A stretch of DNA of 64,000 nt from a virus (IMGVR_UViG_3300033688_000038:29341-93340); one strand, 5' to 3'. Shown: positions 12,126 through 60,400, numbered from the stretch's first letter. Notes: generated by a model from the letters alone, not told the origin. Numbers and translations: made by a program.

Positions 12126-12181
12126 AATTATTTCCTTATCTGGCCAGATAATAAAAAAGGTTTGTAAACCTCTTACTATTA

Positions 12182-32567: not shown

Positions 32568-32595
32568 TGTGATTAAAATGGGAAAAGTTTGTATA
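32568..32595 (+). promoter_or_regulatory. Antisense-oriented near-consensus copy of the late promoter motif (TGTGAT-N15-TTGTATA)
   Basis: 5/6 match to the upstream box, exact downstream box and consensus spacing, on the + strand. Confidence 0.45.
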
Positions 32596-35277: not shown

Positions 35278-35292
35278 TATAAATACTCCTTA

Positions 35293-36408: not shown

Positions 36409-36498
36409 TTATAATTCTCCAATATAGAAAATAACTGGCAGTTTTAGAAATCAATCAATAAGTGCTATTAACACGGATACGTTATTTTTCTGTTTTAA

Positions 36499-36957
36499 TT
36501 ATTTATTATTAATCCACTCTTCCCACTCTAGTGCGTCGCCCCAAGGGTCTTCATCTAGCCATTCTTTTAGTAATGGTTCAGGTAGAGTTTCTAAAAATTC
36601 CATCCAAGGTAAATCATCACCCCATAATTCTTCATCTTCCCATATTTTAAGAAGCCTATCAATTACACTATCATCAGGTGTATATGGCATGCAAATCCAC
36701 CAAGGATCAGATACCTCAGAAAAAGTAATACCCACCATAGATGGTGTATTTATATATTTGGCAAAGGCTTTTAGTGCCTTTTTTCTCCAAGACAAAGTGT
36801 AACCATATCTTCTAAGATTATCGTTTGCATTTGATAAGTTCAAACTAAAAGCGATAATACTTTTCATCTTGTTACACTTATGCCTAGAGCCCCAAAACTT
36901 AAACTGTAGATCAGTAGTTATAGGGAAATTGAGTGTGTTTAAATTAGCAGGTACCAT
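36499..36957 (-). CDS. Hypothetical protein with a Trp/acidic C-terminus, 152 aa
   Basis: GAGGGGG SD; own promoter motif; 'WEDEELWGDDLPW...WLDEDPWGDALEW'. Confidence 0.7.
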   Translation of the reverse strand: MVPANLNTLNFPITTDLQFKFWGSRHKCNKMKSIIAFSLNLSNANDNLRRYGYTLSWRKKALKAFAKYINTPSMVGITFSEVSDPWWICMPYTPDDSVIDRLLKIWEDEELWGDDLPWMEFLETLPEPLLKEWLDEDPWGDALEWEEWINNK

Positions 36958-36987
36958 TTTACCCCCTCATAAGTTTATATACAAATG

Positions 36988-37015
36988 TATACAAAATATT
37001 ACAAGAAAGCTCACA
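36988..37015 (-). promoter_or_regulatory. Putative late promoter TGTGAG-N15-TTGTATA
   Basis: Motif copy upstream of the 152-aa gene. Confidence 0.75.
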
Positions 37016-37027
37016 ATATGTACTAAA

Positions 37028-39466: not shown

Positions 39467-39467
39467 A

Positions 39468-43113: not shown

Positions 43114-46100
43114 TTAACTAGCATCACCAGGGTTATAAACTCCACCATACGTTCTAGTGGTTTTAGGCTCTGTTGTACCAGTAGCCTCCGCACGAACTTC
43201 ATGTCCATTATTAAATGATAACCCACCAAAAGTGTTTCTATAAGTACTGGCAATACTAGAAGCGGTTTTAGCTACACTACTAGTAGGGTCAATAGCTAGA
43301 TAACATTTATAAGGGTCAAGTGCGCACTTCTTAATTTTAGTAGCGTCACCTCCAACCTGAGTCACCTCAATTGAGAGTTTAATATCTCTAGTCAAGTGTG
43401 TTGTAGGGAATGATACAACTGCAGATGGATACAACCCTTTAAAGTTACCAGAAACAGCTGGAACCATTTTAACAGTAATATCATTACCAATCTTCTCTTT
43501 AGTATCAGCATTCTTCAATGTGAACACTAGAGAACTAAGGCCAGTAAGATCTTCCTTATCAGCAGTTAAGTGTATACATGTCTTCAAAGAGTAATTACCT
43601 TCATTAATTAAACTGAAAGCAGCACCATTTTTACTAAAGATAATATTAGATTTAGCATCTTGTACAAGCTGCCATTTAATACCACCACCAGATATAAACT
43701 TTTGATCATTTATAGTAGTAAACACAGAGTGATGTTCATCCGTTATGCCATAATCTTTGTAAGACCACACACTCCAAATAGTACCACTTTTCCTATATCT
43801 AGTAAGAACTTTACCAGTTTCAAACTCACAATAAGATTGGAACCAATTAGCATCATTATAATAGATATTACTTAATGAACCAGCCTTACCACCTACAATA
43901 CCAAGACCTCCAGTAGCAATTGTAGCTGATGCACTAGATTGTGAAATATTAGTAACACATAGATTTTTATTATCATCCTCTATGTATCTAGTGGGGTTAG
44001 GTAATGTTACTGGAAACCTTTTAGATATAGATTTAACATGTAAATCCATCTCTGGATAAGCAAAACTCTTCCAATTATTACCATCAGAAAGATAAAGTGT
44101 TGATGTGTTTTTAGTAAAACCAAGACATTCAGTATTACTACCAACTGGACATGCAGTAGCAAGTGATGCTATATTATCAGCAACATTAATAGCACTCTTA
44201 ATATCAACTGTTAATTCTTTAGTACGACCATCATACCTTGAATTAGACAAACCACCTGTGATATTAATCTTATCAATAGGCATATCTTTAGGGGTAATCA
44301 TTGTTTGACCGTCAGCACTAGTCATAGCACCTACACACTTACCAGTAATAATACTAGCAATTGTAGGTGTGTATTCAATATACTGATTATCACCCTCACC
44401 CTCTGTAGTTAACAGTCCACCATTAAGTTTAATCTTATGTACAGATGGATAAGTGACATCAACTTCACCTATACCTTGTGTCTTTTTACCTTTAAGACTT
44501 AATGTACCAATATTAACTGTAGTTTCATCTCCGCTTCCGCTTACAATTGCATTACCTTTAATATTTATCATGTGTACATTTTTACTTATATTCTCTGCAC
44601 CCTTATCATCCATACCCTTGATAGAGATACCTTTAGAGTCCACTTTTATACTCGTATTTTTAGATTCTGTAATAACCTCAGTTACTAAGTTGTCTCCGAA
44701 AGTGATCTTACTAGTGTTAAGTTTAACAGGTTTAGCTTCACCATTATTACCAACAACTTCAATACCACTAGGAGTTCCACCACCTCCACTGCTCTCAACT
44801 GTAACAATAGCAGTATTAGTGCCATCAGTCTCAGTCACATGAGATAATATAGCAGAACCAGCGAATGTTAGTTTACCAACTTTATCTACAATAATAGGAG
44901 CACCATCGGTATCTTTACCAGTAATAGTGTGACCTTTGTAACCTATGACTGACTTAGAGTATTTACCAAGAACAGTATCCGTTACTTCAACTTTTTCTAA
45001 TGTAAGATGGTTCCCCTTTAGTTCAATCTCTTTAGAATCAAAAGCTTTTACGGGAGCACCTGTTGGATCTGTTCCACCAATCAATACAGTCTTTGATTCT
45101 AAGAAAGTAATCTTGGTTGTACCTTTAGTATCAGAAGTATCACCCTCTATCCTAACATTACCAGCAAAGGATAAACCTGACTGCTCTTTACGAATAAGAC
45201 CAGTGTTTGCTTTCCTGACAGTCATCATTTTAGCTGTAACAGAGACACCATCATTGTGTTGACCTGTTTGGTATACATTAAATGAGTTCCTATTAAACCC
45301 TATTGTTTTAGCTTTAGTTGTGTGATATGAACCAGAGGAATCTTCACCTGTCACTGTCACTGTATTATCAGGTGTACCAGGTGTACCACCGCCAGCTGGA
45401 GGAATAGCAATTAACATTGCACCATCATCTGAGAGGCTAGAACCTGTTGTACTATTATTAACTACTGTGATTGATTTGATTGGCTTGCTAGCAGCACCAA
45501 TAGTGCCATCAATACCCTTAATGTACAATGTATTTGAATCATCTATAAAAGATCCTACATTCTCATGAACTTTCAATTTACCAATAGGCTTAGCTGTACC
45601 TTCACCAACTTGAGCCACAAAAGTACTAGTATCTGAGTTTATAGACACAACACCATTAAGTGTCGTAAGTGTAATCCCTTTACCTTGTTTAATATCTTTT
45701 ACTATACCACCATCTGTACCAATCGGAGAGTCAGTGGAATCAAGGGCTCTTATTGCACTAATAGTTAGTTTCTTACCAGGGACATCAACTGTATGGTACG
45801 GACTATTAAAGTGTAATGTATCAACTTGAGCAGGAGATCCTTCTGCAACTTCTACTGTAAGGACTGTACCCACAGACGCTGATTTAGGTGGAACATTGAT
45901 AGTTAAAACACCAGCATCTGTAACAGATGTACTTCCAGCTTCTAATTCTGTTACTACAATCTTACTTAAACCTTTAGTAGCTGAACCAACAACACCTTGT
46001 ACACCTTTCAAATGTAGAGTATTATCAGAGTCTTCATAAACACCAGAATTGACACCAAACTTAAGTCTAGTAATAGGTTTGATAACATCACCACCAGCAT

Positions 46101-48213
46101 TTTGTGATTCCATCTTAGGAGTCTCTAAGATATTAATGTCAAGTGTTCCATCAACAAGTGTTGACTTTTTATTACTACCACTTATTTTAATCTTTTTAAC
46201 TTGACCTTCAGTACCATCACCAATTACACCTACAATACTATTAGTAGTTTGATCTGGTACATTAATGGTTAAGATGCCCTTGTTGATACTTGTAGTTTCA
46301 TTCTTAGTAATTTTGATTTGAGAAATAGGGGTAACTGCTCCATCACCAATCCTAGCTTCTTGTCCTTTAATATATAAAGTTTTCTTATCAGTACCTTCAT
46401 ACACACTGTTAATAGCGTCTGCTTTTATAGTATTAATAGGTTTAACACTGCCATTACCAATCTTAGAGTCTAAAATCTTAGTATCTAATAAATTGATACT
46501 TAATCTACCACCTGAGATAGTAGAACCTGTTGTCTTACCTGTAAGCCTAATTTTGGTAACAGGAGTAGTTGTCCCAGTTCCAATCTGAGCAGAGATTTGA
46601 TCTTGTGAGATAACCTCAACTGTAGCTGCATTAGGTACAACATTTCCTTGTGTATCATAAGAGTCAGATACAGTAACACCTTTACCTTTAAATCTAATCT
46701 CACTAAGTCCAGTCTTAACATCAGTAGGAGTACTAATAGTTGTGGTTTTTGATATTTTCATTGTAGGTAGAGCTTTTACAGAAATAACTTTTGTATTATC
46801 AGCACCTACTTTAGATATTAAACCAAAACCAATAGAGTCAAATTCTAATTGATCTACCTCTGGGAATACAGAGCCAACAGTTTTATCATCAGATACAATT
46901 AACTTCTTAGTTATAGTACTAGTTTCTTTAAAATCAAGAGTTAATATTCCACCCTCAATTGAAGTTCCAGCACCATAAGCACCTTTGATAGCAATCTCAG
47001 TAATAGGTTGAGCAGAGTCTACACTATTGAAACCCCAACGATCACCTGAGCTTGTCCACTTCTCATCACCCGACCACTTCTTACGGAAAGTCTTAGTGTG
47101 TAATGGATTACCAGTAAGTGAATCACTGAAAGTTTGAATACTCTCTTGTACATCTTCTATAGCAGGATTCCATTTATTATTTCCAATCCAGTTAGCTGGT
47201 TCATCCCATGTGTTACGAGGAGAAGTACCATTACCAGTATCTGGGTCCCACTTATTATCACCAATCCATGTCTCAGGTTCATTCCACAGAGTTCTATCTT
47301 GAAGCCTGATATCGCTCCACTTATTACTACCAACCCATGTGTCAGGTTCACCCCACACTGATTTACCTAAATCTTCACCTTTGTAAATCCAGTTCTCTAG
47401 GTCAAACCAGTCTTCTCTGTCACTCCATAAAGCTATTTGTTCTTCTGGTACATCTTCTAGATTCTTACCAACAAGAGTAGCATTAAAATGAGGTATTTTA
47501 AGATTAAGTGTATTATCCGTGACACTAGTACTAGCTGTATTACCAGAGATAATCATATTATCATAATGTTCTGGCTTTAAAGCAGCACCAACTGTTACCA
47601 TTTTATTTGGGATATCAAGTGTTAATGTACCATCACCTATCCTACATAAATCAGAATCACCTGTAATCTCTAGTTTGTTTATATGACCAGAAGCACCTGT
47701 ACCATCTGGTTTCTTAATTTCTGTTGATAGTGATGTTTTAGCACTAACTTCAATAGTAAGATGAGTTGGTTCATCTTTATCTGGTTGTGTAATTGAAGCA
47801 CCTGGGAAGTTAAGAAAATCAGCTACATAATTCTTAGTTCCATTTCCAACGTGAATAGAACCGCCTCCACCTCCACCTCCTGTAAACATAGGTGAGAAGT
47901 CACACTCTGATTGAACACCAGAGTTATTATATAAAGTAAAAGTTTTAGTTGGACCATCTACATGGCACTGTACAAAAGACTTCTTTGTAATAATAGTATT
48001 CTTAGAGACTGTTGGTTCTAGATAATCTAACCTAGATTGAAACTTATTAATAATAGTTTTATTACTTTGTATTTCACTTGCCATTGACTTCATTTGTAAA
48101 TCTGAAGCAGCAGCTTTTATTTCAAGATCATTCACCTTTAAAATAGCAGGGTTTAACGAACCTGTACGTATGGTCTTTTTTAAATCACCATTATTAAAAA
48201 CAGGGATTGCCAT
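43114..48213 (-). CDS. Giant repeat-rich appendage (putative head-fibre) protein, 1699 aa
   Basis: Many ~40-45-aa beta modules ('A.IG.G...PI.KI.I....S.I..G.L.INI'); Trp-rich insert; N-terminal '[16 protein letters not shown]' resembles the shared anchor. Confidence 0.7.
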
Positions 48214-48231: not shown

Positions 48232-48270
48232 AAAAAAGGGGGTAAGACTGAATTAACAATCTTACCCCCT
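48232..48270 (-). terminator. Strong rho-independent terminator ending the MCP array
   Basis: 11-bp stem AGGGGGTAAGA/TCTTACCCCCT followed by a T-tract on the - strand. Confidence 0.9.
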
Positions 48271-48291: not shown

Positions 48292-48426
48292 TTATTTTTT
48301 AAGTTTTCCCTTCACCACAGGTGTTTTATCAACTGAAGGTCCAACTTCTACAACTGAAGGCTTAACCCTAACAGTCTTTGTAGCTAAAGTTGGATCTACT
48401 GTTGGTGGAGGGTTTACGCCTTTTTT
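48292..48426 (-). other. Putative programmed -1 frameshift (A AAA AAG) giving MCP-8 a 42-aa extension
   Basis: Heptamer at 48426-48420 just before the stop; the -1 frame reads GVNPPPTVDPTLATKTVRVKPSVVEVGPSVDKTPVVKGKLKK* to 48292 and ends 22 nt before the terminator stem. Confidence 0.7.
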
Positions 48427-49337
48427 ACTTCAAGTACACCTGAAGCGAAAGGGTTGCGGTGACGAAGACCTACTTCCATCTCGATCATCCACTTCTCATA
48501 GCTGCCATCTTTAGCTAGCTTAGTACGCTCTGGAGAACGTAGAACCATTTGAGTCCAATCAGATGGAGTGAAGAAGTAAATTGCATCTTCTGGCATCCAA
48601 CGGTTAGGCATTAATTTGTACTCTTGACCTAGTGGGTCTACTAGAGTAGAAACAAATACACTGAACTTAGGAGTGTTCTCAAAGATACGCTGACGAGAAC
48701 CATCACCTTTCTCTTGCAATGCAGAGAATAAAGATGCATGCTTAGGGTGGAACATGATAATGTTCGCATTAGAGCCTGCAAGGTAAAGGTTATAAGTCAA
48801 ACCAAAGATGTCAACTTCTGTAAGAGTTGCACCAGCAGTTTCTGTATGCACAACAGCACCAGTGTCTGTATCAGCAACAGCTTTAGCAGCAACTAATCCA
48901 CGGAAACCTGAAGTCTCACGAGCAACGCCGTTAGAGCCATCAACTTTAGCGATTTGAGTTAGGAATGCATGCTCTAGGTCACGCTTGATTTCTGTACCAG
49001 CTTTTTCCATTTGATATTGAAGCTCTTTACCACGACCGTAGTTTGCTAATGCGTTAGCTGTGTCAGATACTTTAACTACTTTACGTAGAATCTGTGTCAC
49101 GTTGTTATGTACAGTGGTCATCTTTGGTAAGCCGCCTTCAACAGCAGTTTCACCTTCAGCGATAGCATTCTTAGAAACTGGGTTCAGTGCATCTGACTGC
49201 CACTGGAACAAAGTATTCTGGATAGACTCTTTACCAGTCATTGAAGTGAAAGGAGTTTCAGCTGGAGATAGATTAGAAATCCAGTTAGCAAAACTTAATT
49301 TTTTACCGTTTAGGTCATAAGATTGTAGAGTAGCCAT
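48414..49337 (-). CDS. Major capsid protein paralogue 8: bare core, probably the main MCP, 307 aa
   Basis: SU10/phiEco32-type (DUF5309) MCP motifs 'SYDLNGKKLSFANWIS', 'TQILRKVVKVSDTA', 'LAKDGSYEKWMIEMEVGLRHRNP'; own promoter; AGAGGA SD. Confidence 0.92.
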   Translation of the reverse strand: MATLQSYDLNGKKLSFANWISNLSPAETPFTSMTGKESIQNTLFQWQSDALNPVSKNAIAEGETAVEGGLPKMTTVHNNVTQILRKVVKVSDTANALANYGRGKELQYQMEKAGTEIKRDLEHAFLTQIAKVDGSNGVARETSGFRGLVAAKAVADTDTGAVVHTETAGATLTEVDIFGLTYNLYLAGSNANIIMFHPKHASLFSALQEKGDGSRQRIFENTPKFSVFVSTLVDPLGQEYKLMPNRWMPEDAIYFFTPSDWTQMVLRSPERTKLAKDGSYEKWMIEMEVGLRHRNPFASGVLEVKKA

Positions 49338-49416: not shown

Positions 49417-49444
49417 TATACAACAATTTATGGAAAAACTCACA
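49417..49444 (-). promoter_or_regulatory. Putative late promoter TGTGAG-N15-TTGTATA dedicated to MCP-8
   Basis: Motif copy in the 139-nt gap between MCP-7 and MCP-8. Confidence 0.8.
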
Positions 49445-49476: not shown

Positions 49477-50562
49477 TCACCCATAGGGTTTGGTTAAAAG
49501 TGGGATAGTGTTGTCATCAGCAGTTGATTTGATAACTAATACACCTGAAGAGAATGGATTTCTATGTCTAAGACCTACTTCCATTTCTACCATCCACTTT
49601 TCATATGAACCATCTTTAGCAAGCTTGGTGCGCTCTGGTGGTCTTAAAACCATCTGAGTCCAGTCATGAGGAGCAAAGAAGTAGATAACAGATTCAGGCA
49701 TCCATCGATTAGGGATCAACCGATACTCTTGTCCTAATGGATCTACTAGAGTAGAAACATAAGCAGATACCATTGGTGTGTTCTCAAACATACGGACACG
49801 TGTAGAAGCCTTCTCTTGTAATGCACTGAAAGTAGATGCCCATCTTGGATGGAACATAATAATATTAGCACTAGAACCAGCTAAATAAAGATTATAAGTC
49901 ATAGAGAAAATATCTGACTCTTTGACTTCATTACCAATAATATTAGCATCAGGTGATACAAGATTAGTAATACCAAAAACAGTACGAGCACCTGTATCAG
50001 GGTCTGACCAACCATCAATACCTCTACCTGTTTTAGGATCAGGATTTGTGACAGGGTCTGTTAACTTCTTAATACCCTTAAGAGTCATCTTCTTATCTAT
50101 TTCACTTAATGGACTAGCACATAGAGCTATAAAACCAGCAGTCTCTCTAGGATCTGCTCTAGTCTCAGCTTTAGAATCAGCATTGTTCATGAACGTCCAT
50201 TCTAAATCACGTTTAATCTCTTTACCTGCCTTTTCCATTTGATACTGTAATTCTTTACCTCTTCCATAGTTAGAAAGGGCATTGGCAGTATCTGAAATCT
50301 TAACAGTTTTACGTAAGATTTGTGTAATATTAGATCTGACTGTTGTAGTTTTTAAAGCAGAGTCCTTAGCAATATCACCTTCTATCATAGCATTCTTTAC
50401 AGCTTTGTTTAATGAATCATTCTGCCATTGGAATAGTGTTTGAGAGATAGCCTCTTTACCCGTCATAGAACTAAAAGGTGTCTCCTCAGGAGATAGATTA
50501 GAAATCCAATTAGCGAATGATAACTTCTTACCATTCAGATCATAAGATTGTAATGTTGACAT
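49477..50562 (-). CDS. MCP paralogue 7: ~25-aa internal insertion, no Ig domain, 361 aa
   Basis: All core motifs present; insertion 'SEIDKKMTLKGIKKLTDPVTNPDPKTGRGIDG'. Confidence 0.88.
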   Translation of the reverse strand: MSTLQSYDLNGKKLSFANWISNLSPEETPFSSMTGKEAISQTLFQWQNDSLNKAVKNAMIEGDIAKDSALKTTTVRSNITQILRKTVKISDTANALSNYGRGKELQYQMEKAGKEIKRDLEWTFMNNADSKAETRADPRETAGFIALCASPLSEIDKKMTLKGIKKLTDPVTNPDPKTGRGIDGWSDPDTGARTVFGITNLVSPDANIIGNEVKESDIFSMTYNLYLAGSSANIIMFHPRWASTFSALQEKASTRVRMFENTPMVSAYVSTLVDPLGQEYRLIPNRWMPESVIYFFAPHDWTQMVLRPPERTKLAKDGSYEKWMVEMEVGLRHRNPFSSGVLVIKSTADDNTIPLLTKPYG

Positions 50563-50605: not shown

Positions 50606-51949
50606 TTAAACCACAGAAACAGTTACAGTACCAGTTCTTGCTAACTCAACACCACTTTTATCTTGGTATGAGATGTAGTAATCACCACTATGTTGTGATG
50701 TAGCACCATGAGTAATCACAAAACCAGTAGCTCTTACAGTATCACCCTTCTCAGTCCAACGACCAGCTTCATGTCCATTCATAACTAACACTGTCATATC
50801 AGTAGCAATTATAGTGTGGGTTGCTTTGACAGCAGCAGCTGGATCTGGAATAGTTGCTTTTGTTTTTCTATCAAAGCTAATCTGACTTCCACGCTTAACA
50901 TCTACATGGAAATGTTCTTTCTTTTTAATATCCATATTAACAACAGCAGAAGTGCCAGGTTTAATATAATCAAAAGTAGCCTTCTCCCAAGCATTATCAT
51001 AAACTGGATCATCAGAACTGTCAATGTCTAGAACACCTGCTGCAAATGGATGGCGTAGACGTAGACCTACTTCCATTTCAATCATCCATTTTTCATATGA
51101 ACCATCTTTAGCAAGCTTGGTTCTTTCAGGTGGACGTAAAACCATTTGAGTCCAGTCAGAAGGATTGAAGAAGAATACATGACCTTCTGGCATCCATCGA
51201 TTAGGAATCAATTTATATTCTTGACCTAAAGGATCTACTAATGTAGAAACATAAACAGAAATCTTAGGAGTGTTGTGGAACATACGCTCTCTTGTACCAT
51301 CTGATTTCTCTTGTAGTGATGAGAATAAAGATGCATGCTTAGGATGGAACATGATGATACTAGCTTTAGAGCCAGATAAGTATAGATTATATGTTAAATC
51401 AAAAATATCATCTTCTGTAAGAGTACCAGTTGTTTTCACACTCTTGTGAACCATAGCACCAGTATCAATATCAGCAGTACCAATTGGTGAAACAAGACCT
51501 AAGAAACCAGCAGTTTCACGTGGGATTCGAGTACCCACTGTGTCTGTGTGTTCTTGTTGTGAGTTACCATTATGTAGGAATGCCCACTCAATATCACGTT
51601 TAATCTCTTTACCAGCTTTTTCCATCTGGTATTGTAATTCCTTACCCCTGCCATAGTTAGCAAGCGCGTTAGCAGTATCAGAGACCTTAACAGTTTTACG
51701 AAGAATCTGAGTTACGTTAGAACGTACTGTAGTTGAACGTAATGAAGCATCAATTGCCTCATCACCCTCTTTGACAGCATTTCTACCCGCTTTAATTAGT
51801 GAGTCATTCTGCCATTGAAACAAAGTCTGTGATACAGTTTCTTTACCAGTCATTGATGTGAAAGGTGTTTCTTCTGGTGATAAATTAGAAATCCAGTTAG
51901 CAAAACTTAGTTTTTTACCATTTAGATCATAAGATTGTAATGTTGCCAT
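50606..51949 (-). CDS. MCP paralogue 6 with C-terminal Ig-like domain, 447 aa
   Basis: Core motifs plus 'VMNG...QHSGDYYI...TVTVSV'. Confidence 0.88.
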   Translation of the reverse strand: MATLQSYDLNGKKLSFANWISNLSPEETPFTSMTGKETVSQTLFQWQNDSLIKAGRNAVKEGDEAIDASLRSTTVRSNVTQILRKTVKVSDTANALANYGRGKELQYQMEKAGKEIKRDIEWAFLHNGNSQQEHTDTVGTRIPRETAGFLGLVSPIGTADIDTGAMVHKSVKTTGTLTEDDIFDLTYNLYLSGSKASIIMFHPKHASLFSSLQEKSDGTRERMFHNTPKISVYVSTLVDPLGQEYKLIPNRWMPEGHVFFFNPSDWTQMVLRPPERTKLAKDGSYEKWMIEMEVGLRLRHPFAAGVLDIDSSDDPVYDNAWEKATFDYIKPGTSAVVNMDIKKKEHFHVDVKRGSQISFDRKTKATIPDPAAAVKATHTIIATDMTVLVMNGHEAGRWTEKGDTVRATGFVITHGATSQHSGDYYISYQDKSGVELARTGTVTVSVV

Positions 51950-51973
51950 AAATTATTTTCCTCTTGTAAAGTA

Positions 51974-51991
51974 GTGGGGATTTCTCCCCAC
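51974..51991 (-). other. Intercistronic GAAA-loop hairpin (possible leaky terminator) between MCP-5 and MCP-6
   Basis: GTGGGGA-GAAA-TCCCCAC followed by TACTTT. Confidence 0.7.
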
Positions 51992-51998
51992 ATTTGTC

Positions 51999-53330
51999 TT
52001 ACTTAACTGTGATGTTAATAACAGCTGATTTAGCTAAAGCCTTACCATCTTTATCCATATACATTAGGTAGTAATCACCATTGTGTTTTGATGCTGTGTC
52101 GTATGAATACTTGAACTCTAAATCAGAAGTACCAATACCAGTCCAACGTCCACTCTCTTTTCCATTGAAGTAGATACAAGTGATGTCAGTAGCTGCAGGT
52201 GTAGCGGTCTTAGCTGAATTTGATGGGATAGTTGATTTTGTTTTTCTCTTAAAGATAAGTTGAGTACCAGGTTTAACATCAATGTGTTGTGGGTTTACCT
52301 CTGCTTTTAAATCTAAAGTAGATACATTTGTATCTCCAGATTTAACATATTTAAGCTCCATTGTCTCCCAAGCTTTTGCACCCATATCAGGGTTATCACC
52401 ATGAGCTACGTCAAGAACACCAGCTGCGAATGGATGACGTAAACGCAATCCAACTTCTGTCTCGATCATCCACTTCTCGTAAGAACCATCTTTAGCAAGT
52501 TTAGTACGCATTGGAGCACGAAGAACCATCTGAGTCCAGTCGCTAGGGTTCAAGAAGAAGATAGAACCTTCAGGCATCCAACGGTTTGGAATCAACTTAA
52601 ACTCTTGCCCTAATGGGTCAACTAGTGTAGAAACATAAACAGAAAGCTTAGGTGTGTTCTCAAACATACGAACACGAGTAGGAGATTTCTCTTGTAGAGC
52701 ACTGAAAGCAGCAGCCCACTTAGGGTGGAACATGATAATGTTTGCACTTGAACCTGCTAGGTATAAATTGTATGTTAGGTCAAAAATATCTGACTCAGTT
52801 AATTTATTATCAGTTACTACTTTTTTATGTACAACAGCACCTGTATCTGGATCAGTGTTATCAATGTGAGCCACAAGACCTAAGAAGCCAGCAGTTTCAC
52901 GAGGTTGACGAACACCACTTTGATCTGTGTATTCAGCACGAGAGGCTTCATTATTCAAGAACGCCCATTCTAGGTCACGCTTTAGTTCAGAACCTGCCTT
53001 CTCCATTTGGTACTGAAGCTCTTTGCCTCGACCATAGTTAGCAAGAGCGTTAGCGGTATCAGATACCTTAACAGTTTTACGTAGGATTTGTGTAAGGTTA
53101 GAACGTACAGTAGTTGCTCGTAGTGAACCATCTGTAGCTTCGATACCCTCAACGATTGCGTTCTTACCAGCTTTAGATAGCGCATCATTCTGCCATTGGA
53201 ATAGTGTTTGGGTGATTGACTCTTTGCCAGTCATTGAAGTGAAAGGTGTCTCCTCAGGAGATAGATTAGAAATCCAGTTAGCAAAACTTAGTTTTTTACC
53301 ATTTAGATCATAAGATTGTAGAGTAGCCAT
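51999..53330 (-). CDS. MCP paralogue 5 with C-terminal Ig-like domain, 443 aa
   Basis: Core motifs plus 'YFNG...KHNGDYYL...INITVK'. Confidence 0.88.
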   Translation of the reverse strand: MATLQSYDLNGKKLSFANWISNLSPEETPFTSMTGKESITQTLFQWQNDALSKAGKNAIVEGIEATDGSLRATTVRSNLTQILRKTVKVSDTANALANYGRGKELQYQMEKAGSELKRDLEWAFLNNEASRAEYTDQSGVRQPRETAGFLGLVAHIDNTDPDTGAVVHKKVVTDNKLTESDIFDLTYNLYLAGSSANIIMFHPKWAAAFSALQEKSPTRVRMFENTPKLSVYVSTLVDPLGQEFKLIPNRWMPEGSIFFLNPSDWTQMVLRAPMRTKLAKDGSYEKWMIETEVGLRLRHPFAAGVLDVAHGDNPDMGAKAWETMELKYVKSGDTNVSTLDLKAEVNPQHIDVKPGTQLIFKRKTKSTIPSNSAKTATPAATDITCIYFNGKESGRWTGIGTSDLEFKYSYDTASKHNGDYYLMYMDKDGKALAKSAVINITVK

Positions 53331-53345
53331 GTTTTATATCTCCTA

Positions 53346-54728
53346 TTAACCTTTCATATGAAAGTATACAGATTTTGATTGTTTTTTATATGTTGGATTC
53401 GCTGAATCAGTTAAGATTAACAAATAGTTTCCAACATTCTTTGATGAAGCCACACTTGTGATGACAAACTCAGTATCCTTGTCACTAGTGATTGTTTCTC
53501 TTGCTAAGTAGACTCCATCCTTATAAAGGGAGACCACATTCCAAGTTGCAGACTCAGCAGTGTCAGCTTTACCTGATGGAGCTGGTGGATCTGGTTTTGG
53601 TGGTGGTGGTGGATCTTCCTTTTTATACTTCTTAATTTTGAAAGATAACTTATCTCCAGTAACATAAGGAACATCAATACCATATTCTCCAAGACCACCA
53701 AGCATATCAATCTCAGTGGAATCTGTTAAAGATCTACCCTCGATGATTAAAGATGTTACATCAACATCCTTTTTGATATGAACATTATCAGTGGTATCTA
53801 GGATACCTGCAGCAAAAGGGTTTGATAATCTTAAACCAAGCTCAGCTTCGATCATCCATTTTTCATATGAACCATCTTTAGCAAGCTTAACGCGAGATGG
53901 TGGTCTTAATAACATTTGTGTGAAATCACTAGCCTTGAAGAAGAAAATCTTCTCTTCTGGCATCCAACGATTAACAACCAATTTATGTGTTGCACCAAAC
54001 ATATCAACTAATGTAGAAACATATACTGATAATTTAGGTGTATTCTCAAAGATTCTTCTTCGTGAAGCTTCTTCAGGTTTCCCACCATCAGCTGGTCTTT
54101 CTTGTAGTGCTGAGAAATATGATGCCCATTTAGGGTGGAACATAATAATATCTGTCTCAGAACCAGCAATGTAAAGATTATGAATAATATTGAAAATATC
54201 CATATCCTCAAAAACGCCATCAGCTTTACCAGTACTTTGATGTACAATGGCTCCAGTTTCAAAATCAACAGCACCAAGAGGTGCCACCAACCCAGCAAAA
54301 CCAGCAGACATCCTTCCATGCTCATCTGTTTCATCAGATGCTAGTTCATTGTTCAAAAGAGCCCATTCGATATCCCGTTTAAGTTCTTCTGCTGCATTCT
54401 CTAGCTGGTATTTAACTTCCTCTGTTCTACCATAGTTTTCAGTAGCATTAGCAGTATCAGAGATACTAATAACCTTACGGAGGATTTGAGTCATGTTAGA
54501 TTTAGTATCAGTGTGACCAACATTACCAGACACAGCATCATCACCTTCAGAGTTAACATTACGACCTGCTACTGCAAGGTTATCAGTCTGCCACTGAAAG
54601 ATAGTTTGATTTGTAGCCTCTTTTCCAGTCATAGATGAAAAAGGTGTATCTATTGGAGCTATTGTTGAGATCCAATTGGCAAAACTTAACTTCTTGCCAT
54701 TCAGATCATAAGATTGTAAAGTAGACAT
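53346..54728 (-). CDS. MCP paralogue 4 with C-terminal Ig-like domain and Pro-rich loop, 460 aa
   Basis: Core motifs plus 'DPPPPPKPDPPAP', 'LYKDG' and 'NVGNYLL'. Confidence 0.88.
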   Translation of the reverse strand: MSTLQSYDLNGKKLSFANWISTIAPIDTPFSSMTGKEATNQTIFQWQTDNLAVAGRNVNSEGDDAVSGNVGHTDTKSNMTQILRKVISISDTANATENYGRTEEVKYQLENAAEELKRDIEWALLNNELASDETDEHGRMSAGFAGLVAPLGAVDFETGAIVHQSTGKADGVFEDMDIFNIIHNLYIAGSETDIIMFHPKWASYFSALQERPADGGKPEEASRRRIFENTPKLSVYVSTLVDMFGATHKLVVNRWMPEEKIFFFKASDFTQMLLRPPSRVKLAKDGSYEKWMIEAELGLRLSNPFAAGILDTTDNVHIKKDVDVTSLIIEGRSLTDSTEIDMLGGLGEYGIDVPYVTGDKLSFKIKKYKKEDPPPPPKPDPPAPSGKADTAESATWNVVSLYKDGVYLARETITSDKDTEFVITSVASSKNVGNYLLILTDSANPTYKKQSKSVYFHMKG

Positions 54729-54736
54729 ACTTTCTC

Positions 54737-56164
54737 CTATGATTTATATCTTAAGTGCATACCATCTGTTAGTTCAACTAACGCACCATCTGCACTAGAA
54801 CCTACAAGAACATAAGTACCTGCATCAGAAGGAGAAGCCTTCTCAGAAATAATAAATTCCTCAGAGGCAGCACCATCAACAGATGTTAATTTATGGTTCA
54901 TAATAATCTGACCATCTTTGATAAGTTTAAAAGAAGCCACTACTATGTTAGCAGGAAGTTCAGAATTCTTCTTAGATTGAACTTTTAGTTTAAGAGGTTT
55001 ACCAGGGATTAAATTAAACTCAGAATCCTTATTAAAATCACCACTATGTAGCACACTCTGAGAAATCTTTTTAACTTTAAAGATTGGCTTCTGTGCAGGG
55101 GTAAGGGGTTTAGATTTAATAGCATCATCAGAGCCAATCCAAAGCACACCAGAGCCATAAGGGTTTGCGTGTTGTAATCCAACCTCTGCTTCAATCATCC
55201 ACTTCTCTGAAGAACCTTTCTTAGATAGTTGAGTTCGTTTAGGTTGACGAAGAACCCTTTGTGTCCAATCTTTAGGATCAAAGAAGTAAATAAGATGAGT
55301 GGGCATCCAACGATTAGGGATCAACATGTAAGTTTGACCTAATGGGTCTGTTACTTCATTCACAAAAAGAGAAACCTTATCTGTGTTCTCAAAAAGTCTT
55401 GTTCTTTTACTAAGTGTAGGAGTCTCTGGAGCACCACCAGAATATATAACATTTGGTGATTCTTGTAGAGAACTAAAAAACTTAGCTTGACTTGGATGAT
55501 ACATAATAGTGTTAGCATCAGAACCTGACAAATATAAATTATAAGTCATTGTCCAGAGTTTACTTTCTGTAAGTTCCTCACTTACCCAAATATCTGGGCT
55601 AAAATTAGGTGAGTGATCTGCCATAGTAGTATCTCTTGTAAAGAAGTTCACAACAGCACCAGTTTCAGGGCAAGGTGTATTAGCAGGGGCTACCAAAGGA
55701 TAGAACCCAGCTGTTAATCTAACACCCTCTTCCACAGGAGCACCAGCAGAATCAAGAGATGATTCATCATGAGAGCCTGCTTTATTATTCAGGAATGCCC
55801 ATTCAATATCACGCATTAACTCTGTACCAGCTTTAGTCATTTGATACTCAAGTTCTTTACCTCTACCATAATTAGATAGGGAGTTAGATGTATCAGAAAC
55901 CTTAATCACTTTACGAAGGATTTGAGTTACATTACTCTGATCAAGTGTAACGTAAGCATCATCCTCAACAGCAGATGAACCCTCTAGTACAGCATTATCT
56001 TCTACTCTATCTAGATTATCAGTTTGCCACTGAAAGGTGATTTGATCTGTTGGTACTTTTTTAGTCATTGAAGTAAAAGGAGTCTCCTCTGGGGAGATAT
56101 TACTAATCCAATTAGCAAATGATAACTCTTTGCCGTTCAGATCATAAGAATGAATTGTAGCCAT
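54737..56164 (-). CDS. MCP paralogue 3 (most divergent core) with Ig-like domain, 475 aa
   Basis: Variant motifs 'IHSYDLNGKELSF' and 'LSKKGSSEKWMIEAEVGLQHANPYG'; three loop insertions; 'IKDG...SDAGTYVL'. Confidence 0.85.
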   Translation of the reverse strand: MATIHSYDLNGKELSFANWISNISPEETPFTSMTKKVPTDQITFQWQTDNLDRVEDNAVLEGSSAVEDDAYVTLDQSNVTQILRKVIKVSDTSNSLSNYGRGKELEYQMTKAGTELMRDIEWAFLNNKAGSHDESSLDSAGAPVEEGVRLTAGFYPLVAPANTPCPETGAVVNFFTRDTTMADHSPNFSPDIWVSEELTESKLWTMTYNLYLSGSDANTIMYHPSQAKFFSSLQESPNVIYSGGAPETPTLSKRTRLFENTDKVSLFVNEVTDPLGQTYMLIPNRWMPTHLIYFFDPKDWTQRVLRQPKRTQLSKKGSSEKWMIEAEVGLQHANPYGSGVLWIGSDDAIKSKPLTPAQKPIFKVKKISQSVLHSGDFNKDSEFNLIPGKPLKLKVQSKKNSELPANIVVASFKLIKDGQIIMNHKLTSVDGAASEEFIISEKASPSDAGTYVLVGSSADGALVELTDGMHLRYKS

Positions 56165-56166
56165 TA

Positions 56167-57576
56167 TTACTCCTTAGCTTTCTTTGCTCGTGGTTTACGT
56201 TGAGGTTTTACTTCAACAACTTCAGTTTGGATTTCATCAGCCTTTGTATAAGGTTGAGCATCAACTTTAAGTCCATAAGATTCTGTCTGTTCTACATACT
56301 TGTAGTTAGTTCCAACGGCAGTCTTCTTCAAACCAATAGCATAATAAATACCAGCATCTTTTGTATCAACAGATTCTGAGATTACATGAGTGAATGTATC
56401 ACCTGCTGTTGTAGATACAGGTAATTTAGATGCGTACAAAATATCATCTTTATATAAGTCAATATAATCCACTTTTGCAACTGGTGCTTTTAATGTAATG
56501 ACAAACTTAGAACCAGCTGTTAGTTTACCAGTGTTCTCTGTATAAGAAGCTGGTTCAATCTCATCAGTCCCAGCACTACCTGTTTTATATACTACATCGG
56601 TAATATTTGCAACAATAGGTGCAGCAGGTTTTATCATTAATAGACCTGAAGAGTAAGGATTAACATGTCGTAAACCAACCTCCATTTCTACCATCCACTT
56701 CTCGTAAGAACCATCTTTAGCAAGTTGTGTTCTCTGTGGTTCTCTTAATAAAACTTGAGACCAGTTATCAGGATTAAAGATATAAACAGCATCATCTGGC
56801 ATCCAACGATTGGGGATTAGCTTAAACTCTTGTCCCAGTTGATCTACTAATGTAGAAACATATACTGATAGTTTAGGTGTGTTATTAAACATACGTTGTC
56901 TATTTGTAACTGGGTTTCCATCTAAACCTTTATACGTACCTTGACTCTCTTGTAAAGAACTAAAGAATGATGCCCATTTAGGATGGTACATAATAGTATC
57001 AGCCTCAGAGCCTGCTGTATATAAAGAGAATAGTAAATGGAAGATATCTAACTCACTAATTGAATTAGGATTAGCAGTCTCCATAGTCGTAATAGCACCT
57101 GTCTCAGGACAAGGCATATTCAGTGGAGCAACTAATCCGCGATAACCAGCAGTCTTTCGAGGGGTTGTTCCATCAACATCTTGCTCAGCACTCTTATTAG
57201 TTAATAGCGCATACTCAAGGTCACGTTTAATCTCTTTACCAGCTTTCTCAAGTTGATATTTAACCTCTTTATCTCTACCGTAGGTATCTAGAGCATTTGC
57301 AGTATCAGAGATCTTAACTACTTTACGTAAGATTTGAACTGTGTTACTTTTTGTACTAGTTGATCGTAGTGGGACAGATTGAGCTCTATCACCTTCACCA
57401 TGAACATTACGACCAGCCTGTTGCAATGAATCGGTTTGCCATTGGAAAACTACCTGGTTTGTTTTATCCTTTCTTGTCATTGAAGAGAAAGGACAATCCA
57501 TTGGAGATAGGTTACTAATCCAATTAGCAAATGATAATTTCTTACCATTTAAATCATAAGATCTTAAAACAGACAT
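56167..57576 (-). CDS. MCP paralogue 2 with Ig-like domain and basic tail, 469 aa
   Basis: Core motifs plus 'LYKDD...KDAGIYYA' and tail 'VVEVKPQRKPRAKKAKE'. Confidence 0.88.
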   Translation of the reverse strand: MSVLRSYDLNGKKLSFANWISNLSPMDCPFSSMTRKDKTNQVVFQWQTDSLQQAGRNVHGEGDRAQSVPLRSTSTKSNTVQILRKVVKISDTANALDTYGRDKEVKYQLEKAGKEIKRDLEYALLTNKSAEQDVDGTTPRKTAGYRGLVAPLNMPCPETGAITTMETANPNSISELDIFHLLFSLYTAGSEADTIMYHPKWASFFSSLQESQGTYKGLDGNPVTNRQRMFNNTPKLSVYVSTLVDQLGQEFKLIPNRWMPDDAVYIFNPDNWSQVLLREPQRTQLAKDGSYEKWMVEMEVGLRHVNPYSSGLLMIKPAAPIVANITDVVYKTGSAGTDEIEPASYTENTGKLTAGSKFVITLKAPVAKVDYIDLYKDDILYASKLPVSTTAGDTFTHVISESVDTKDAGIYYAIGLKKTAVGTNYKYVEQTESYGLKVDAQPYTKADEIQTEVVEVKPQRKPRAKKAKE

Positions 57577-57585
57577 AACTTCCCC

Positions 57586-58902
57586 TTACAAATCGATAGC
57601 GACAGTTCCACCAATATTTAGTGTGATACCTGGAGTGACATCTTTATTAACAGAAGTAATAGCAGATACGGAGTATAATCCAGCATGTTCAGCAGTAGCT
57701 ACATCTGTAATCTTAATCTCAAGAGCTGCATCTTTACCACCTGCAATATACTCTTGTGTAATTAAAGGTACACCATTTTTATTAATAACAATTGTCACAG
57801 GCTTACCAGCAGTAGCATCTGCTTTAAGTTTCAACTTAACGATTAGTGGTTTACCAGGTTTATGAGTAGCAATACCATCTCCAGCTTTACCAAAAATAAG
57901 TGACTTAGCAGTATCACCTGTAACATCTTCAACAGTATGTAAAGTTGGGCTATCATCCACTGCAGTACCTACACCATTAAAGATTTTGTAGAAATCAGCA
58001 CCTTTCTTAGTTGTAAGAACACCTGCTGCGAATGGATGGCGTAGACGTAAACCTACTTCCATTTCAATCATCCACTTCTCATATGAACCATCTTTAGCAA
58101 GTTGTACACGAGTTGGTTCACGAAGTACCATTTGTGTAAAATCTTCTGGACGGTAGAAGAATACCTTATCAGTTGGCATCCAACGATTTGGTAGTAATTT
58201 ATATTCTTGACCTAAAGGATCAACCAACGTCGATACATGTAGGTTAACTTTATCTGTATCTTCAAACATACGAATACGAGTTGCTGATTCTTGTAACATA
58301 CTAAAACGATAAGCCCAGTTAGGGTGATACATGATAATATTAGCTTTAGAACCACTTAAGTATAACTGGTAAGTCATATCAAAAAGTTCAGCTTCTGTGA
58401 ATTCTCCACCTGCTAGTTCTTTATAAACAACAGCACCTGTCTCAGGGCAACTAGAGTTTAGTGGAGCAACAAGTCCTGAAAAGCCAGCAGTCTCACGTGG
58501 GTCTGTAACTTTAGCAGTGCTTTGATTCAAGAATGTCCACTCTAAATCACGCTTAATCTCTTTACCTGCTTTTTCCATCTGATAAGCTAATTCCTTACCA
58601 CGACCATAGTTGTCGGTAGCATTTGCAGTGTCTGATACTTTAACTACTTTACGTAAGATTTGAGTTACGTTAGTACGAACAGTTGTAGTATTCATTACAC
58701 CTTCAGTAGCCTTTGTACCTTCTAATGCTGCATTCTTTTTAGCCTTAGTCAGTGAGTCGTTTTGCCATTGGAATAAGCACTGCTCAACAGATTCTTTTGC
58801 TGTCATTGAGACAAACGGACAATCTTGAGGAGAGATAGTACTAATCCAATTAGCAAATGATAACTTCTTACCATTAAGTTCATAAGATTTTAATGTAGCC
58901 AT
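57586..58902 (-). CDS. MCP paralogue 1 with Ig-like domain, 438 aa (start MATLKSY)
   Basis: AAGGAAG SD before 58902; the start aligns with the other seven copies; 'NKNG...EHAGLYSV'. Confidence 0.88.
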   Translation of the reverse strand: MATLKSYELNGKKLSFANWISTISPQDCPFVSMTAKESVEQCLFQWQNDSLTKAKKNAALEGTKATEGVMNTTTVRTNVTQILRKVVKVSDTANATDNYGRGKELAYQMEKAGKEIKRDLEWTFLNQSTAKVTDPRETAGFSGLVAPLNSSCPETGAVVYKELAGGEFTEAELFDMTYQLYLSGSKANIIMYHPNWAYRFSMLQESATRIRMFEDTDKVNLHVSTLVDPLGQEYKLLPNRWMPTDKVFFYRPEDFTQMVLREPTRVQLAKDGSYEKWMIEMEVGLRLRHPFAAGVLTTKKGADFYKIFNGVGTAVDDSPTLHTVEDVTGDTAKSLIFGKAGDGIATHKPGKPLIVKLKLKADATAGKPVTIVINKNGVPLITQEYIAGGKDAALEIKITDVATAEHAGLYSVSAITSVNKDVTPGITLNIGGTVAIDL

Positions 58903-59241
58903 ATAATATGTCTTCCTTGTATTATGCCAATCACGAAGATTGGTAATCGACAATAATCTTAATAAATTGGACTACAATGGAAGGCCAAACTTAATAATTA
59001 TTGACTTGATCTGTATAGATAAAAATAAATCTAGTATACAGGTAATGTTGTTATAAGTTTTATATAGTAGGGGTTTGTAACTAATGAGGTTTTATTCGAT
59101 GATATTTGAATTCTAATCTATACGTGAGTGTATAGTATTAGATAATATAATAGAACAGACTGATACAAATACAACTGTATAGAATGAACATTATCTTTTT
59201 AAAGTTTAGAGATTGCTTACAGGGAGTAAGGTTCTCGAATA

Positions 59242-59317
59242 AAGGACTACTGGCGTAGCCCTTGTTCAGGTTTGTTGCGTGGGGCATCTTCGGGAGTTTA
59301 TAATGCCCTGCCCCACG
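59242..59317 (-). ncRNA. Candidate structured RNA element between the scaffold gene and the MCP array
   Basis: GC-rich island with a perfect 9-bp CGTGGGGCA/TGCCCCACG stem and an AAGGGCTAC-gcca-GTAGTCCTT hairpin. Confidence 0.35.
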
Positions 59318-59365
59318 TCTTATATTTCTTTTAAGTTGCACTCAAGGTAGCAATCACCTTATTTA

Positions 59366-60400
59366 TTAATCTTCTAGCATATCAAACATGTTACCAAGAT
59401 CTTGCTGATCAAAGCTACCAGTTTCCATACGCTTCTTCAGTACAGCCTTCTTGGTGTTACCTGCAGGTTTACTTGACTTAGCTACTGCTTTGACTACTTT
59501 CTTAGGTGAGCCAATCTTCTTAATCTTAGCTTTAACAACTTGTTTACCTTGGTCTAATTGTTTAGCTTTATACAAAGCTTTAAAAATACCAGGATCTACA
59601 CAAGTAGTAATGAAATCTTCTGTCATACCAATCGAGTGACCATACTTCATAAGTTCTGTATACAACTCTTTATTCCAACCAGGGATATCTTTAGAAAGAA
59701 TAGTATTTGATTCAGCGGCTTGACGTTGTTGAGTAGCTGCTTTTTCAGCACCCTCAGCTTCTTTAATCTTAACCATCTCAGAGTTAATCTCTTTTAAGCG
59801 AGACTTATAACGATCAAGGAATTCACGGTTCTCAACATAAGCACTAGGATCTTCTTTAGCCAGGCTAACAAAATCAAAATCTGAATAATCTTCTACTACT
59901 TTCTGAGCTTCCAATTGAGCTAACTCTAATAGTGATTTGATATCTTTAGATGTACCTTCAAATGTAGCACGCTCTTCTTCGAATGCAGCACGCTCTTCAG
60001 CAAGAGCAGCAGCAGAACGATAACCTTTGATTGCTTCATTAAGCTTAACCATAGAGCCATCAGGAAGTGTTACATCATACTCTTCAAAGTCAACTTCATC
60101 ACCATCTTCATCAGTAATTTCTGCATCACCATCTTCGTACTCTGCATCATCTTCATCTTCTTCAAACTCTTCTGTCTCTTCATCAGTCTCTTCTTCAGAT
60201 TCTACATCATCTTCATCTTCATCAATTGTATCAAAGTCAAAATCACTTTCATCAATACCTAAATCAGATAAATCATTATCATCAATATCTTCAATTGCTG
60301 CTGCTTCTGGAGTCACGATAGTATCTTCACTATCTAACTGACCAAAAATATCACCCATATCTTCAATGTACATGTCATTCATTTCAATATTCATACTCAT
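59366..60400 (-). CDS. Capsid scaffolding protein, 344 aa
   Basis: Very acidic N-terminus, 'YDVTLPDG..VKLNEAIKGY' motif, coiled coil, basic C-terminal stretch; lies between portal and MCP. Confidence 0.85.
   Translation of the reverse strand: MSMNIEMNDMYIEDMGDIFGQLDSEDTIVTPEAAAIEDIDDNDLSDLGIDESDFDFDTIDEDEDDVESEEETDEETEEFEEDEDDAEYEDGDAEITDEDGDEVDFEEYDVTLPDGSMVKLNEAIKGYRSAAALAEERAAFEEERATFEGTSKDIKSLLELAQLEAQKVVEDYSDFDFVSLAKEDPSAYVENREFLDRYKSRLKEINSEMVKIKEAEGAEKAATQQRQAAESNTILSKDIPGWNKELYTELMKYGHSIGMTEDFITTCVDPGIFKALYKAKQLDQGKQVVKAKIKKIGSPKKVVKAVAKSSKPAGNTKKAVLKKRMETGSFDQQDLGNMFDMLED

Follow-up and report, generated by a model that had tools for sequence, protein, structure and literature searches.

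Why would a tailed phage, when such phages are generally thought to use one shell protein or two at most, keep eight genes for its major capsid protein (MCP) and extend six of them with strongly diverged domains? The question is raised by IMGVR_UViG_3300033688_000038:29341-93340, a stretch of 64,000 nucleotides (nt) of virus DNA that comprises bases 29341-93340 of a 124,877-bp IMG/VR virus record (hereafter the window, in which all positions are counted from the first letter). We found that its minus strand carries eight intact tandem open reading frames (ORFs) that are SU10-type (HK97-fold) capsid genes, MCP-1 to MCP-8, and that MCP-1 to MCP-6 run on in frame beyond the capsid core into extensions that, at the level of the family, are immunoglobulin (Ig)-like. 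The original prediction, made from this sequence alone, had counted six MCP paralogues with in-frame C-terminal domains of ~110-150 amino acids (aa); the six are there, with extensions measured at 134-156 aa, as part of an array of eight in which MCP-7 and MCP-8 have no Ig domain.

All eight ORFs match PF17236 SU10_MCP with E values of 1e-65 to 1e-81 and scores of 221-273 bits, against a curated cut-off of 24.1 bits, and these eight are the only PF17236 matches in the whole genome. The closest solved structure to the MCP cores is SU10 gp9 (PDB 7z45; MCP-3 residues 5-345, E 1e-81). The conserved core ends at ...G[VIL]L in every copy, MCP-8 running 5 residues beyond it, and each of the eight genes has a Shine-Dalgarno (SD) sequence and an ATG start.

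MCP-1 (57586-58902, minus strand like all the others; 438 aa) starts at the ATG at 58902, from which its N-terminus agrees with those of the other paralogues, and an SD-like AAGGAAG lies upstream. Its core spans 58015-58902 and its linker and Ig-like extension 57586-58014 (142 aa), so the end point of 57900 given in the original prediction cut this extension short. MCP-2 (56167-57576; 469 aa) has its extension at 56167-56637 (156 aa), in which an Ig-like part precedes a basic C-terminal tail similar to one on the first MCP of a related contig, L012. MCP-3 (54737-56164; 475 aa) has core loop insertions of its own and an extension at 54737-55141 (134 aa), and the extension of MCP-4 (53346-54728; 460 aa), at 53346-53798 (150 aa), has its B-C loop enlarged by a proline-rich insertion. 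In MCP-5 (51999-53330; 443 aa) the extension at 51999-52412 (137 aa) is predicted to consist of a linker and an Ig-like β-sandwich, and MCP-6 (50606-51949; 447 aa) bears a sister of it at 50606-51028 (140 aa). MCP-7 (49477-50562; 361 aa) combines a core insertion of ~50 aa with a tail of 19 aa; MCP-8 (48414-49337; 307 aa) is core only. From MCP-1 to MCP-5 the genes are separated by gaps of 2-15 nt in a single orientation.

The array is held at 100% or 99.99% identity by three other assemblies, and the same eight genes recur in a diverged strain that is represented by two further assemblies. Nucleotide identity between the copies is 81% at most. Collapse or duplication during assembly is ruled out by the identical arrays on other assemblies together with this limit on identity, and gene conversion was rejected as the source of the core similarity, there being no stretch between copies above 81% nucleotide identity.

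Ig-like character of the extensions

The motifs quoted in the original prediction are all present and align in register across the six extensions: a strand ending in INKNG, LYKDD, LIKDG, LYKDG, IYFNG and LVMNG in MCP-1 to MCP-6, respectively, and an F-strand motif that reads EHAGLY, KDAGIY, SDAGTY, KNVGNY, KHNGDY and QHSGDY. The only invariant columns are the G and Y of the F-strand motif, which form part of the tyrosine corner D-x-G-x-Y. A profile made from the six extensions, when compared with 1.84 billion protein cluster representatives, gave 28 matches at E<=1e-3, all of them large repeat proteins except for those of the window itself. Six of the seven matches that were checked are I-set/Ig_3/Ig_2 repeat proteins and the seventh is of the Bact_surface_Ig-like/Big_3 kind; E values for the I-set/Ig_3 repeat proteins range from 3e-14 to 1e-3. 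In an alignment of 50 sequences that includes I-set domains, the extensions and these domains are in register at strands B, C (x-K-x-G), E, F (D-A-G-x-Y) and G, with the tyrosine-corner Y invariant and the G at least 90% conserved.

We also scored each extension with a local Ig profile that was seeded on the I-set-like domains found after the MCP gene of three related phages and filled with 110 Ig segments. All six (MCP-1, 19.9 bits; MCP-3, 19.1; MCP-4, 16.7; MCP-5, 13.1; MCP-6, 12.7; MCP-2, 10.5) score above the best of 1200 shuffled controls (9.2 bits), MCP-2 only barely. Compared as single sequences with an outside Ig profile in hhalign, MCP-3 reached 91% (E 9e-7), MCP-1 66% and MCP-2 43%.

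An AlphaFold2 model of the MCP-5 extension, computed from the 50-sequence alignment (predicted local distance difference test score, pLDDT, 78.8; predicted template-modelling score, pTM, 0.72), shows a disordered linker of ~14 residues followed by a ten-strand β-sandwich. In an exhaustive comparison with VIA-align, the Ig domains of PECAM-1 (Z 9.1), LAIR-1 (Z 9.0) and PirB (Z 9.0) came out on top and nearly all of the top 50 were Ig-like; RhoGDI-type sandwiches reached Z 8.6 and covered more residues than the Ig matches, and a Moo19 capsid chain reached Z 7.2. The matches of this model in BFVD are a phage Ig-like protein and Hoc proteins, and those in the ESM Atlas belong to I-set/Ig_2 families, with template-modelling (TM) scores of 0.53-0.64. 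With three additional strands at its N-terminus, the domain is larger than a textbook I-set.

Several results count against an Ig assignment for every extension. The Pfam Ig models PF07679, PF13927 and PF13895 match none of the six as single sequences, even at E<=10, and single-sequence hhalign was weak for MCP-6 (26%), MCP-4 (10%) and MCP-5 (1.8%). The Ig sequences in the local profile came from a search with these same six extensions, which makes that test not fully independent. A confident model was obtained for the MCP-5 extension only, from an alignment that held Ig domains and may have biased the fold, and the top whole-domain matches of that model in Foldseek are RhoGDI/PDE6δ-type sandwiches (TM ~0.45). 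The AlphaFold2 model of full-length MCP-1, made from an alignment of eight sequences, was poor (pLDDT 50); it places seven strands where they would be expected, at residues 343-432, with a pLDDT of only ~60. The structural check suggested with the original prediction thus yielded an Ig-matching β-sandwich for MCP-5 and, for MCP-1, a low-confidence model with seven strands.

A PHROGs search with the isolated extensions and an ESM Atlas feature search with that of MCP-4 returned nothing usable, and a word-indexed search with the MCP-5 extension alone recovered only its own protein. The disulfide pair that joins strands B and F in the Ig core is absent, the extensions holding 0-1 Cys and 0-2 Trp, and the strand-C Trp is replaced by I, L, Y or F; such losses are common among phage and bacterial Ig-like domains. 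The evidence supports an Ig-like assignment of the extensions at the family level, nearest to I-set/Ig_3, with uneven support from one paralogue to the next. The I-set-like character first proposed for them is borne out by the family profile search, the in-register I-set alignment and the Ig structural matches of the MCP-5 model. The RhoGDI/PDE6δ-type sandwiches that head the Foldseek whole-domain list make any finer Ig subtype tentative.

Origin of the domains and related arrays

The extensions of MCP-5 and MCP-6, already recognized as sisters in the original prediction, are 39% identical over 141 aa (E 2e-30). All other pairs share 20-31% identity, with weak links (E 5e-4 to 1e-2), and those between MCP-1 and MCP-3 (5e-4), MCP-3 and MCP-4 (6e-4) and MCP-4 and MCP-6 (4e-3) join them into a connected set. 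No further domain of the same type was found elsewhere in the genome. Judged by their sequences, the six domains, which had been presented as different, look like diverged copies of a single ancestral domain rather than six independent acquisitions.

That ancestral domain is probably the C-terminal Ig-like module that relatives of this clade append to their capsid protein by frameshifting. In Privateer, the shifted frame after the MCP gene encodes an I-set domain (1.5e-10; the first domain) and a Big_2 domain (1.4e-18), and the extensions of the present array align in register with the Privateer I-set. The Privateer frameshift product is annotated as a minor capsid protein verified by mass spectrometry (PMC7881722). 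SU10 joins gp9 to its Ig-like gp10 at GGGAAAG, and mass spectrometry detected the short and the long form alike (PMC4281155). A shifted frame with I-set-like or Big_2 domains is found in LAh_8, phiEco32 and several metagenomic relatives too, and the second MCP gene of phage 7-11 has an in-frame Big_2 extension. An Ig-like nature of the extensions and their descent from the clade's module seem to us very likely. The job done by the long frameshift form in phiEco32, SU10 and Privateer, or by a second gene in 7-11, would then have been handed to six dedicated paralogues.

The end of MCP-8 (48292-48440, minus strand) has a slippery heptamer, A_AAA_AAG, and a -1 frame that stays open for 42 codons, rich in Pro, Val and Lys and with a basic end; these 42 residues encode no Ig domain. 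The sister strain L057 keeps this frame open with four base changes, three of which alter the amino acid. This slippery end may be what is left of the clade's capsid frameshift after loss of its Ig domain.

A search with the full-length proteins found many extended MCP homologues, and their contigs, from related uncultured phages, show arrays of like layout. L054, a Logan contig of 56 kb, has seven MCP genes with extensions of 456, 165, 159, 163, 131, 25 and 30 aa, and L056, an ENA contig, has six, with extensions of 145, 469, 146, 114 and 36 aa and one of 28 aa in a copy set apart. Two arrays are cut at the contig end: L055 holds at least three MCP genes (extensions of 474 and 192 aa before the cut) and L012 at least two (181 aa before the cut). 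The two complete arrays, L054 and L056, thus carry 6-7 MCP genes of which 4-5 are extended, and they share with this window's array a layout of several extended copies followed by two short ones. The sixth gene of the L054 array has a long core and a short tail, like MCP-7.

In a tree of the cores, array members form one group, apart from one long-branch copy; its support of 89/92 does not place it among the tree's strongly supported branches. The group excludes 7-11, Privateer, LAh_8 and the kuraviruses, and the 7-11 duplication is independent of those in the arrays. Within the group there is no one-to-one orthology and there are several sister pairs within genomes. The extensions are barely alignable between phages: pairwise BLAST against the relatives' extensions gave marginal matches and found no orthologue of any of the six in another phage species. 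The evolution of the array looks like that of a birth-and-death gene family.

The arrays and their relatives show further variations on the capsid gene. Multi-domain MCP extensions of 456-474 aa at L054:3434-5695, L055:7629-9956 and L056:7630-9963 are mutually homologous (E 1e-9 to 2e-30) and have no counterpart in this window's array. In L049:4064-6603 (JACCDV010663762.1) and L029:4501-4635, a related MCP gene lies in three collinear pieces (residues 1-45, 47-121 and 121-305) with ~770 and ~850 nt between them, which suggests introns or inserted mobile elements within the capsid gene. Two metagenomic relatives, L048:10001-13219 and L043:10001-12309, have a second and very divergent MCP paralogue (28-36% identity). 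Each has a shifted-frame Ig-like ORF, which in L043 comes after the divergent second MCP and in L048 after the first; in L048 an HNH-endonuclease-like ORF (11760-12152) lies between the two MCP copies.

Selection, expression and the place of the domains on the shell

Selection was compared with the sister strain L057, at which distance changes are unsaturated. The eight cores pooled give proportions of nonsynonymous (pN) and synonymous (pS) change of 0.0058 and 0.114, a ratio of 0.05, and the seven C-terminal tails pooled (the six Ig extensions and the 19-aa tail of MCP-7) give a pN of 0.042 and a pS of 0.135, a ratio of 0.31; the comparison of core with extension divergence proposed in the original prediction therefore comes out as a marked difference, with amino-acid change ~7 times faster in the extensions. 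For single cores the nonsynonymous-to-synonymous rate ratio (dN/dS) is 0.00-0.10, with 0.04 for the MCP-7 core, and on account of this purifying selection we take all eight genes to be functional. The extensions of MCP-1 to MCP-6 differ from L057 at 5, 18, 4, 4, 20 and 22 amino acids, respectively, and the cores at 0-11. These extension differences cluster in loops, above all the B-C loop, which holds 10 of the 20 in MCP-5 and all four in MCP-4, where they lie together with one indel in the proline-rich insertion; the MCP-6 extension has four gap columns and an indel in an N-terminal loop. Such fast loop change fits a binding surface under changing demands, and it fits relaxed constraint on loops too.

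Between the paralogues dS is saturated (>1.2), from which we conclude that the duplicates are old, and for the same reason the core dN/dS of ~0.08-0.2 between them is unreliable. The shell core that the original prediction described as conserved is so only in part, with 53-81% identity among the copies, three hypervariable regions (MCP-8 residues 61-80, 121-180 and 201-220) and insertions specific to MCP-2, MCP-3, MCP-4 and MCP-7. The most conserved parts of the core are the N-arm and spine-helix regions, which in the HK97 fold carry most subunit contacts. Neither a reverse transcriptase nor inverted repeats were found, and a diversity-generating retroelement and an invertible switch were accordingly rejected.

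A putative phage late promoter, TGTGAG-N15-TTGTATA, lies directly upstream of MCP-8 (49417-49444, minus strand). The motif, in general form TGTGAG-N15/16-TTGTATA, was sought as TGTGA-N15-17-TTGTATA, of which the window contains seven matches (12182-49444) where 0.05 would be expected by chance; six are on the minus strand before genes, all starting TGTGAG, and one is on the plus strand at 32568-32595. None lies upstream of MCP-1. Promoter function is our reading of this distribution, and the motif is a candidate for a phage-specific late promoter. An intrinsic-terminator-like hairpin of 14 pairs followed by a T-run (48237-48270, minus strand) closes the array after MCP-8, and there are hairpins between MCP-5 and MCP-6 and between MCP-6 and MCP-7. 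Codon bias is strongest in MCP-8 (NNC fraction 0.61; Arg encoded by CGY codons alone); MCP-5 follows at 0.54, and MCP-2, MCP-3, MCP-4 and MCP-7 stand at 0.24-0.30 with many AGA codons. In virions of the relatives, the plain short form is the major species and the long form a minor one (PMC4281155, PMC7881722). MCP-8 is probably the major shell subunit and the others minor, because MCP-8 has no extension, a promoter-like motif of its own, the strongest codon bias and a terminator, and because the plain form is the major one in relatives.

The minus-strand head module is ordered terminase, SU10-type portal (PF23899 SU10_portal, 2e-159), scaffold and MCP array; the head scaffolding protein gene (59366-60400, minus strand; phrog_9013, 6e-93) lies directly upstream of the array. 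A scaffolding protein is also present in T7, P22 and SU10. No S78 or ClpP prohead protease was found; a Peptidase_S77 search was uninformative, as it gave no match in control genomes either. Cleavage of the extensions from their subunits is unlikely, since no S78 or ClpP protease was found and the long forms of relatives are present in virions (PMC7881722, PMC4281155); removal by proteolysis had been named at the outset as a fate that would speak against the original prediction.

The gap between scaffold and MCP-1 (58903-59365) is unusually long at 463 nt, compared with ~50-140 nt in the relatives examined. It is rich in A and T, and a GC-rich hairpin sits near 59270-59315, immediately past the scaffold stop. 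The gap contains neither an Rfam match nor a copy of TGTGAG...TTGTATA, and an Rfam scan of the window found no RNA family. Directly after the array lies a gene for a 1699-aa protein (43114-48213, minus strand) with no Pfam or PHROG match, and L054 has a 1417-aa gene at the equivalent position. Further on (33109-39511, minus strand) are two large appendage-like proteins with C-terminal Laminin_G_3 (concanavalin A-like lectin) domains, one with a sub-threshold match to SASA (sialate O-acetylesterase), and similar genes lie beside the array of L056. The IMG/VR label of provirus is unsupported: it is made doubtful by a scan of 185,579 bacterial and archaeal species genomes, in which no relative of the capsid genes was found, and by a head module of the lytic phiEco32-like phage type.

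For the virion, we lean towards a mosaic shell made mainly of MCP-8, the minor subunits of which would display fast-evolving Ig-like domains on the outside, adhesive by analogy with Hoc. MCP-8 would build most of the prolate shell, and MCP-1 to MCP-7, translated from their own ribosome-binding sites, would co-assemble on the scaffold as minor subunits. MCP-1 to MCP-6 are hard-wired fusions of a shell-forming core, a short flexible linker and one predicted Ig-like (I-set-like) β-sandwich of ~110-125 aa, and each extended subunit would present its C-terminal domain on the outside of the capsid, in the manner of T7 10B. The domains would stay folded yet change fast, mainly in their loops, as would suit weak and changeable binding of surface glycans, a Hoc-like adhesion. 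That the extended forms are incorporated as minor subunits we think likely; mixed assembly in one virion and outside exposure of the Ig domains are proposals, and the idea that the extensions act as a panel of distinct adhesins is a tentative one that leans on the Hoc analogy.

Several observations weigh against such a display shell. The cryo-electron microscopy (cryo-EM) map of SU10 has no density for the Ig part (PMC9509320), so that even this model phage gives no occupancy or position for the domain on the shell. The dN/dS of 0.31 in the extensions is also what plain relaxed constraint would give; the cores differ by 19-47% and have paralogue-specific insertions, none of which a pure display role needs; and the stretch is present in eight sequencing runs from four studies, none of them an RNA run.

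The divergence of the cores could instead mean that each MCP builds a capsomer class of its own (vertex pentamers, cap hexamers or tube rings), the Ig-like domains then being part of the architecture of a long prolate head holding 125 kb and not adhesins. The hypervariable regions, the insertions in MCP-2, MCP-3, MCP-4 and MCP-7 and the strong purifying selection on all eight cores are in keeping with such roles, and the head of SU10 contains eight capsomer classes, two of pentamers and six of hexamers (PMC9509320); dedicated penton and hexon paralogues, moreover, are known in T4 (gp24/gp23; PMC3012670) and in phage Jabs. SU10, however, makes all eight of its capsomer classes from one MCP, and fixed roles should be conserved, whereas the related arrays have 6 or 7 copies that lack one-to-one orthology and include sister pairs within genomes. 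The concentration of conservation in the N-arm and spine helix also fits interchangeable subunits, and we regard position-specific roles as rather unlikely. Quite improbable, in our estimate, is a gene-encoded patterned lattice in which each paralogue forms its own capsomer class or ring of a very long prolate head; were it true, the array would set both the geometry of the head and a fixed pattern of six Ig-like binders, with no random mosaic.

The domains might otherwise be a built-in cement that lies on the shell and stabilizes it, their divergence tracking the core surfaces beneath. Phage phi29, also prolate, reportedly has an HK97 core with a C-terminal Ig-like domain packed on the capsid, the BIG2 domain of gp8 that Morais et al. 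are said to have described in 2005. The Moo19 capsid chain is among the structural matches of the MCP-5 model, and a genome of 125 kb, compared with 77 kb in SU10 and 90 kb in 7-11, might need reinforcement. Against a cement stand the predicted disorder of the linker at the start of the extension, the missing density of the SU10 Ig part, which is probably flexible or sparse, and the absence of the domain from MCP-7 and MCP-8. A contact surface that fits a conserved shell would, moreover, not be expected to change at ~7 times the core rate, chiefly in loops, or to be barely alignable between phages, and we judge this explanation improbable. Highly improbable to us is that the genes are alternative or redundant, with one or a few used per host or condition and the rest kept as spare copies under relaxed selection. 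Saturated dS between paralogues marks them as old duplicates, codon bias differs strongly between copies, and the hairpins between MCP-5, MCP-6 and MCP-7 together with the separate promoter-like motif before MCP-8 would allow unequal expression; all eight, however, are intact with SD sequences, their cores show a dN/dS of 0.00-0.10 between strains, the genes from MCP-1 to MCP-5 are tightly packed in one orientation, neither invertible repeats nor a reverse transcriptase was found, and such arrays are kept in several related phages.

Comparison with known capsid systems

The mosaic shell that we favour has its nearest counterparts in phiEco32, SU10 and Privateer, which share with this array an SU10-type MCP core (50-72% identity) and one or more C-terminal Ig-like domains, an arrangement analogous to T7 10A/10B. 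Theirs are added by a -1 frameshift in a minority of translations, whereas here six separate in-frame genes carry strongly diverged domains. Salmonella phage 7-11 (Moazamivirus) has tandem MCPs of 312 and 585 aa with a terminator between their genes, a plain copy and a copy that continues in frame into a Big_2 extension; it differs in having two genes rather than eight, with the plain copy first, an extension of the Big_2 type and an independent duplication. In phi29, likewise a prolate phage, gp8 is a shell protein with an in-frame C-terminal Ig-like (BIG2) domain. There, by contrast, one gene supplies every subunit and the domain is reportedly packed as a structural element, while here only some paralogues have the domain and it follows a flexible linker.

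Hoc-type decoration also places an Ig-like domain on the capsid, and Hoc models are among the structural matches of MCP-5 in BFVD. Barr et al., in 2013, reportedly set the precedent for Hoc-type Ig-like adhesion to glycans and mucus. Hoc-type proteins are, however, separate proteins that dock on the finished shell via a capsid-binding domain, whereas here the domain is covalent to the shell subunit and comes in six versions. T4 Hoc, T5 pb10 and the decoration proteins of N4 and Moo19 have fast-evolving Ig-like domains exposed on the capsid (PMC10385173). More than one HK97-fold MCP gene per genome is also found in T4 (gp23/gp24; PMC3012670) and in mycobacteriophage Jabs (MCPh/MCPp), which have two genes with fixed lattice positions as against eight here that lack conserved orthology to the six or seven of relatives.

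We found no paper that describes arrays of six to eight MCP genes whose members have Ig-like domains of their own. The frameshift form with one gene and the form with two are known already from published work; the expanded array appears to be undescribed, a phage lineage in which six to eight capsid genes are retained under purifying selection, most of them with a fast-changing Ig-like domain. Should the copies mix in a single shell, the virion would have its own set of binding modules built in, which would make it a natural system of multivalent display and a direct test bed for capsid Ig-like adhesion to mucus and cell-surface glycans; if they take fixed positions, the array is a new way of encoding a large prolate capsid. 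Either way, one phage group offers a clear case, from the frameshift of phiEco32, SU10 and Privateer through the second gene of 7-11 to the gene array described here, of a recoding product that gave way to dedicated paralogues.

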